DNA from: a virus
Lineage: Duplodnaviria; Heunggongvirae; Uroviricota; Caudoviricetes
IMG/VR virus record: IMGVR_UViG_2869970738_000009
Reading direction: 5' to 3' (one strand)
DNA: 33,980 nt
Every line of letters begins with the position of its first letter. The first letter of the stretch is position 1. A model generated the notes under the pieces. That model had not been told where the DNA came from. It did not search any database and was given only the letters and a program-made list of their open reading frames with translations. Both the position numbers and the translations under genes were made by a program. This document shows positions 25 to 614 of this stretch, piece after piece.

Positions 25-578
25 ATTGAGCGAGTGGGCGAGGACATCAATGCGCCATCCTTGTTGACTGGCAATCCAGCCCTCCAGCCACAGACGGGTG
101 GTATCGTGAATATTCCAGCCAACCACCAGCGCATCTTTACCCTGTTTTTTACGTGCCGAAGCCAGACAGATGGCGATGTAGTTGATCAGTACGCCGTCGA
201 GGATCGCCAGCAGCGCCTGGAGAGTCGGTTGTTGGCACTGAAGCCGTCGACGCAGAGGAATAAACAAATGCGTGGTGAGCGTCTGGGCGGGGTAATCCTG
301 ACCGCGCTCTTTGATCCACGTTCGCAGGCTATGCAGATTGCCGCTTTGCAAGTAAGTCAGTAATGTTTCTTGCTGATCGCGCCAGCCGTTCTGCACATCA
401 ACATTTTCATTACTGAGCAGCATTTTAACTTTGCTGACCTGCACGCCGTTGTCGATCCAGCGTTTGATCTCGCGGATCCGGTCAATATCGGCATCGTTGA
501 ACAGCCGATGACCGCCGTCTGTCCGTTGCGGTTTCAGCAATCCGTAACGCCTCTGCCACGCGCGTAACGTGACAGGGA
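25..578 (-). pseudogene. mlrA: mlrA (yehV) internal fragment, MerR-family regulator; 5' end replaced by prophage DNA, 3' end runs into the IS terminus
   Basis: Translation gives a MerR-type HTH tail (PVTLRAWQRRYGLLKPQRTDGGHRLF...) consistent with MlrA as recalled; frame continues into the 24-bp IR and stops at TGA at 1-3; upstream of about 578 the sequence no longer fits the expected N-terminus. Confidence 0.7.
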
Positions 579-614
579 TTAAGGGTAAACTAACTGATTG
601 TACAAGTTTTTATT
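579..614. other. putative prophage attachment junction between mlrA fragment and int
   Basis: Short segment between the point where the mlrA frame diverges and the int stop codon at 615-617; position inferred, core sequence not defined. Confidence 0.3.

Follow-up and report, generated by a model that had tools for sequence, protein, structure and literature searches.

The window analysed here, the whole 33,980-nucleotide stretch of the Caudoviricetes record IMGVR_UViG_2869970738_000009, begins inside an insertion sequence (IS) and passes through a fragment of mlrA into a phage attachment site and a broken integrase gene. MlrA is an RpoS-dependent, MerR-type activator of csgD. The features on which the argument turns are the following.

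1..19, minus strand: left end of an ISSso6-like element, its first 19 nt (GCAGTATGACTTTCCGTGA), recognized as part of a repeated 24-mer; the remainder lies beyond the window
20..24, minus strand: GTAAG, putatively the opening 5 nt of the inverted repeat (IR), GTAAGCG..., of an IS66-family (ISEc23-like) element, from target-site comparison
25..576, minus strand: mlrA remnant, nt 49-600, codons 17-200 of 243, from alignment to K-12 mlrA, Pfam and NCBIfam
557..576, minus strand: 20-bp att core CCTGTCACGTTACGCGCGTG, mlrA nt 49-68, from a four-way alignment
577..614, minus strand: phage attachment-site arm, from the core to the integrase stop, containing an in-frame TAA at 612-610
615..1140, minus strand: 3' remnant of a tyrosine integrase gene, the C-terminal ~175 codons of 428 (Pfam Phage_integrase)
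1141..1908, minus strand: IS1 with an adjacent 1,186-bp deletion, from InsA/InsB ORFs and IS1 Pfam families
30041..31565, plus strand: complete ISSso6-like copy (element proper 30046-31563, core AG on each side), from its IS110 transposase and repeats

The mlrA fragment and its phage junction

Alignment to the intact K-12 gene (b2127, 732 nt, 243 aa) placed mlrA nt 49-600 on window positions 576..25 without gaps, with 98.4% nucleotide identity (558 nt) and a single amino acid difference, Q173H, across codons 17-200. K-12 identity ends at window 576 on one side and at window 25 on the other. The first-pass annotation had proposed such an alignment and had described mlrA as disrupted twice, by a prophage at its 5' region and by IS DNA at its 3' region, with only an internal part of the gene remaining; that description was borne out, and both breakpoints are now placed.

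Profile searches returned the NCBIfam MlrA model NF011617 (1.8e-116); the score, 387.6, misses the curated cut-off of 417 only through the truncation of the protein. Pfam matches comprised only profile positions 16-68 of MerR_1, all of MlrA_helical, and positions 1-42 of 77 of MlrA_C. The fragment is thus an ortholog of E. coli K-12 mlrA by sequence that falls short of the complete MlrA architecture (MerR_1 helix-turn-helix, MlrA_helical and MlrA_C, scoring above the cut-off): missing from it are the promoter and start codon, helix 1 of the MerR helix-turn-helix and the last 43 codons (MlrA_C). Judged from these absences, it is a gene remnant and not a functional member of the MlrA family.

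The reading frame leads to a similar picture. It is open on the minus strand from 609 to 4 and is closed upstream by the TAA at 612-610, five bases past the integrase stop codon. The earliest ATG, GTG or TTG in frame is a TTG at 540, codon 29, and therefore any product of the remnant would be without the entire helix-turn-helix. No sigma-70-like promoter was predicted on the minus strand across 577-1200, upstream of the remnant, although such predictions are weak evidence. After residue 200 come seven foreign codons (VRQYDFP) and then a TGA at window 3..1.

The possibilities that the fragment is a different MerR-family gene, or that its junctions are assembly artefacts at repeats, were considered and rejected. 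Repeated elements carry a general risk of misassembly, and the window does begin inside an IS; this is all that speaks for an artefact. The identity to K-12 mlrA and the MlrA-specific Pfam domains identify the gene as mlrA, as had been proposed, the int-mlrA junction also occurs in 457 complete E. coli genomes, and six complete genomes assembled independently share the mlrA-IS junction, the remnant protein being indexed in 66 blocks of a genome collection. We give these alternatives next to no weight.

The phage junction was examined by aligning four sequences: the K-12 attB, both prophage junctions of the lysogen E. coli strain 582, and the window. The 20-bp core is found at the window junction and at either end of the prophage in strain 582; it corresponds to mlrA codons 17-23 and is common to the phage and bacterial attachment sites, and the crossover falls somewhere inside it. 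Beyond the core, window 577-614 differs from an E. coli lysogen by one mismatch. Of 5426 complete E. coli genomes, 457 align with window 25-1140 over 80% or more of that interval and show this arrangement of mlrA and a tyrosine integrase; a combined mlrA and int query found a median of 1 and a maximum of 2 places per genome (5423 E. coli genomes). In two of these lysogens, the PGAP annotation has an mlrA cut down to 228 or 233 aa, beside a 1287-nt int and xis. The proposal that the frame gives way upstream to phage DNA beside int therefore holds: 577-614 is phage DNA, and the integrase remnant begins at 615.

With a tyrosine integrase and the att core at its junction, and with that core at both ends in strain 582, this prophage is of the lambdoid kind that occupies mlrA (yehV). 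[quoted passage not shown] A search of the window for the 5' 48 nt of mlrA found none, and the second prophage junction lies outside the window; these first 48 nt, with the promoter, stay with btsS at the far prophage end, so that codons 1-16 and the promoter are parted from the rest of mlrA by at least 30 kb of prophage. The btsS-mlrA-yohO-yehW context is absent from the window, in which prophage and IS DNA flank the remnant, whereas in K-12 and in the E. coli lysogens yohO-yehW still adjoin mlrA.

An Stx-phage-like prophage with a damaged integrase and no stx

The integrase remnant is collinear with the 1287-nt int of the E. coli lysogens and ends at IS1. Window positions 1140 and 1909 map to 5116 and 6303 of one E. 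coli lysogen locus (L001), and the 1,186 bp replaced by IS1 hold, in the E. coli lysogens, the N-terminal part of the integrase, xis and a small ORF. With int truncated and xis deleted, the prophage presumably cannot excise. That would rule out recovery of mlrA by excision, a route that PMC5931665 implies for O157:H7.

Other ISs lie within the prophage. The IS1 copies at 1141-1908 and 10478-11247 are identical and inverted relative to each other. Two IS3-family copies, likewise inverted, occupy the prophage early region at 3415-4571 and 5386-6634, one partial and one of 1,249 bp; we take their OrfA to be IS911-like. Which of the IS3-family copies are present varies among related Shigella boydii genomes.

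The prophage genes run in the order repressor, Ant-like regulator, O/P-like replication genes, Q, methyltransferase, tRNAs Met/Arg/Arg, a nanS-p-like esterase (24070-25950), endolysin and Rz, a gene order shared with Stx-converting lambdoid phages. The 871-bp stretch from the tRNAs to the nanS-p-like gene contains no stx ORF, and so the prophage is not itself an Stx phage, which by definition carries stx. This stretch, at the usual position of stx, matches phages bearing an iraM or anti-adapter gene, and within 22949-24069 lie the sRNA STnc100 (23274-23463) and, on the minus strand at 23489-23845, an ORF for an iraM-like anti-adapter.

Elsewhere in the prophage, Rfam matches at the gathering level place the isrK Hfq-binding RNA and the C4 antisense RNA at 14012-14197, at the 5' end of an ORF for a 282-aa Ant/Rha-like regulator (13955-14803). 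This arrangement suggests an antisense-controlled anti-repressor module.

Insertion sequence DNA at codon 200

At the other breakpoint, identity to K-12 mlrA stops at window 25, exactly after nt 600. Window 1-24 was matched by no E. coli mlrA in the complete E. coli genomes, and an exact second copy of this 24-mer, inverted, lies at 30041-30064, with 0 chance matches expected. These 24 nt are all the IS DNA that the window holds at this junction, and what follows about the DNA beyond them is drawn from relatives that are 99.5-99.9% identical. The TGA at 3..1 overlaps the final two bases of a 14-nt subterminal inverted repeat, TATGACTTTCCGTG (window 15..2), and so the frame does run, as had been noted, into IS DNA that provides its stop. 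The view that this DNA is an IS terminus needs amendment. An IS end carrying the stop codon is present, but it is not a single one, being made up of 5 nt attributable to an IS66-family IR and 19 nt of an ISSso6-like element.

The complete ISSso6-like copy at 30041-31565, which faces the opposite way from the one where the window begins, lies after the prophage lysis genes and is nested in the IR of an IS66-family element (PGAP name, ISEc23) that extends from 31566 to the window end at 33980. The nested element, named ISSso6 by PGAP in E. coli, is ~1.52 kb long and encodes an IS110-family transposase of the DEDD type (NF033542, 2.2e-81). Its 14-nt repeat lies 5 nt from the left end and 2 nt from the right end of the element proper, and these subterminal IRs, together with a specific target and no target duplication, place it in the IS1111 group. 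Complete copies could be aligned from both S. boydii and E. coli. The mlrA-linked copy, of which only 19 nt fall within the window, has in S. boydii an identical transposase CDS and differs by one base in the right-end region.

The target of the element was read from its junctions at 10 sites. All show [G/A]TA-AG to the left of GCAGTATGAC, and all right junctions read ...GTCATATC-AG, followed by CG except at two loci (TG at L018, CC at L020); the right end itself reads ...GTCATATCAG. The corresponding empty sites in K-12, at the 3' end of yoaE (GATGA-GTAAGCG-TTAACG) and in speC (GCGAAT-ATAAGCG-CTATGC), carry [G/A]TAAGCG, and therefore ISSso6 inserts at [G/A]TA-AG-CG, with AG as the common core. 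The IR tip of IS66-family elements is GTAAGCG, the IR of K-12 yoeD reading GTAAGCGTCAACGG, and at the IS66-linked ISSso6 copies the DNA directly to the left of GTAAG is unrelated. The IS66-family assignment made here follows from an IR that starts with GTAAGCG, of which only GTAAG lies inside the window at mlrA.

How these five bases came to lie beside mlrA decides between two accounts of the 3' junction. The simpler one, and the most straightforward way to take the first-pass annotation, needs no IS66 element: one ISSso6-like element would have moved straight into mlrA behind nt 600. It has some appeal, given that mlrA is at once followed by sequence identical to the left junction of the second copy and that IS110-family elements leave no target duplication, so that a clean junction is expected. 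It predicts a junction in which the right end meets mlrA nt 601, GTCATATC-AG-CAACTACGCC. In six complete genomes, however, the right flank is the IS66 IR and not mlrA from nt 601 onward. The GTA before the AG core (ATA at speC) is target-derived at all other sites, whereas K-12 mlrA reads CAATCAACTACG at the breakpoint (CTCAAT-CAACTACG) and nowhere contains TAAGCG on either strand. Direct insertion is thus improbable. Because mlrA has no ISSso6 target, the GTAAG beside it (window 20..24, in which AG is the ISSso6 recombination core) is most likely the tip of an IS66-family, ISEc23-like IR. On this comparison of target sites, GTA(AG) would belong to neither mlrA nor ISSso6, and the junction is read most economically as mlrA nt 600 joined to an IS66-family IR into which ISSso6 subsequently inserted. 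A direct join of mlrA nt 600 to an IS66 IR occurs in 0 of 5426 complete E. coli genomes, which makes the 3' event specific to this Shigella lineage.

The related genomes extend the picture beyond the window. S. boydii CDC 3083-94 (CP001063; PMC2974192) and five other complete genomes encode a protein identical to the 179-aa remnant. Their six loci match the window at 99.5-99.9% and none is identical to it, so the source of the window is a related strain, with a genome of the Shigella boydii type. In all six, the ISSso6 adjoining mlrA is complete and its right flank continues an IS66 repeat (AGCGTCAACGG...), the continuation reading CAGCGTCAACGG, or TAGCGTCAACGG in CDC 3083-94; the 3' 132 nt of mlrA are therefore not adjacent. 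On the far side of the IS, five of the six, including CDC 3083-94, have the yoeD remnant followed by yoeF-tmaR-yeeA-sbmC-dacD-sbcB, a region that lies in K-12 at 2.0785 Mb, ~137 kb from mlrA. In the sixth (L006) the far side is a full IS66 element, as at window 31566 onward, the arrangement expected if the segment between the two oppositely oriented ISSso6 copies had been inverted. In these loci (L005-L010, about 13560-14835), downstream of the IS linked to mlrA, yeeA is interrupted by another IS110-family element, with a 326-aa transposase, and dacD by an IS1.

This linkage raises a further alternative, in which the 3' junction arose by an IS-mediated deletion or inversion that fused the distant yoeD/CP4-44 border to mlrA, the 3' end of the gene being lost or relocated; the agent would be either two ISSso6 copies or the end of an IS66-family element. 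Five of the six related genomes do have codon 200 connected to yoeD-yoeF-sbcB by way of the IS, as such an event would produce. Moreover, yoeD is an ancestral truncated IS66 remnant, present in K-12 as well, that does not transpose on its own, and ISSso6 flank exchange is seen among strains (L006 versus the others). On the other hand, the orientation of the flanks in K-12 is at odds both with a simple deletion and with one inversion alone, and an IS66-family insertion followed by ISSso6-mediated flank exchange yields an identical present structure, so that this account overlaps the preferred one and does not exclude it. We regard it as unlikely, though a deletion, or some more complex origin of the 3' junction, merits consideration.

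Traces of the sequence lost from mlrA were also sought. A simple IS66 insertion into mlrA would leave an 8-bp duplicate, CGCTCAAT, by the 3' 132 nt of the gene. Neither reciprocal junction (the 5' 48 nt of mlrA by btsS, or the 3' 132 nt by yohO) was found, and a search for contigs with the ISSso6 transposase returned ten places, in other assemblies, with 0 beside yohO/yehW; these places served only to define the target.

Guide RNAs have been described for IS110 and IS1111 elements. A scan of ISSso6 at the Rfam gathering threshold found no described bridge-RNA or seekRNA family. The 3' noncoding region of the element holds GACGTAAGAAAGTGGCAGGCTCATATGAC (31393-31421) and GAATATCAGCGTGA (31451-31464), which repeat its left (GTAAG|GCAGTATGAC) and right (CATATCAG|CGT) junctions and are candidate guide-RNA segments; these junction-like motifs suggest a guide RNA of the IS110/IS1111 kind. 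At two loci (L017 and L018, about 5130-5170) the right flanks of ISSso6 are internal ISSso6 3' sequence (CTTGGCGACGGCGG... and TGGCAGGCTCATATGAC...), and therefore the element has there inserted into other ISSso6 copies, in the putative guide-coding region. It is an evenly balanced proposition that ISSso6-like elements are guide-RNA-directed parasites that home to the GTAAGCG tips of IS66 IRs and whose repeats re-link Shigella loci. If so, identical 1.5-kb ISSso6 repeats at IS66 ends would act as portable homology, as between mlrA and yoeD, and the 3' junction of mlrA would be a by-product of nested ISs and not a simple insertion.

Proposed history, consequences and known parallels

The observations support a model, to which we assign a probability of about 0.85, in which mlrA in an S. 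boydii-type chromosome was inactivated through independent mobile-element events. A lambdoid phage, Stx-phage-like and stx-negative, integrated site-specifically at mlrA codons 17-23, as the shared att core attests, splitting off codons 1-16, which encode helix 1 of the MerR-type helix-turn-helix, along with the start codon and promoter. Later, an IS1-associated deletion, seen directly against the E. coli lysogens, destroyed int and xis and, with them, probably the capacity to excise. At the other end, target specificity argues that mlrA after codon 200 was joined to an IS66-family (ISEc23-like) IR and that an ISSso6-like IS1111-group element then invaded this IR at [G/A]TA-AG-CG. Finally, homologous exchange between ISSso6 copies, evident in the relatives, may have re-linked the flanks in the genome from which the window derives.

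The expected consequence is the absence of a functional MlrA and hence of MlrA-dependent csgD and curli activation, a prediction that rests on published cases. A prophage in proximal mlrA abolishes Congo red binding and curli, which mlrA supplied in trans restores (PMC3874044). PMC3874044 and PMC5931665 attribute the loss of csgD-dependent curli to prophage occupation of mlrA, and thus agree with the expectation, stated at first pass, that curli regulation is lost or altered. The csg operons of Shigella are themselves reported to be IS-inactivated (PMC7373316), and therefore the loss of mlrA is probably redundant, reflecting relaxed selection.

In such a lineage the gene for the curli activator would be irreversibly lost, by a prophage, by the loss of its excision, and by IS DNA that cuts the gene off at codon 200. 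Such a loss accords with the IS-driven decay already known for Shigella biofilm and curli functions, and its importance beyond annotation is small: the type of event is already well known, the sequence is present in public genomes, and the outcome is ordinary Shigella gene decay. For annotation, the 228- to 233-aa "MlrA" proteins that PGAP calls in lysogens and the 179-aa ORF described here are best regarded as pseudogene fragments, and GTAAG|GCAGTATGAC marks ISSso6 within an IS66-family IR, not an ISSso6 insertion in the neighbouring gene. Mild novelty lies only in the way ISSso6 nests site-specifically in the tips of IS66-family repeats; no description of the ISSso6 target site was found in the literature searched.

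Three known systems frame these findings. The closest is the mlrA prophage of O157:H7 and other STEC, with which the case described here shares the gene, the proximal position, the integrase type, the lambdoid Stx-phage-like backbone and the expected loss of csgD and curli activation. It differs in that the prophage is without stx, having an iraM-like gene and STnc100 in that place, in that IS1 has destroyed int and xis, and in that mlrA bears a second, 3' disruption. The IS-driven decay of Shigella genomes (Hawkey et al. 2020, PMC7373316) offers a second parallel, in an S. boydii-type host, in the loss of curli and biofilm genes, in the presence of IS1, IS3, IS66 and IS110 families within 34 kb, and in the shuffling of flanks between IS copies; that paper, however, cites IS-mediated loss of the csg operons themselves and leaves mlrA unmentioned, and none of the literature searched ties mlrA to Shigella specifically.

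The third parallel concerns the mode of insertion. IS4321 and IS5075, also of the IS1111 group, reportedly target the terminal inverted repeats of the Tn21 family (Partridge and Hall 2003). Like them, ISSso6 has subterminal IRs, leaves no target duplication, inserts in a fixed orientation and uses a short target at the tip of an IR. Unlike them, it targets the outermost GTAAGCG of IS66-family repeats, as well as chromosomal sites of similar sequence.
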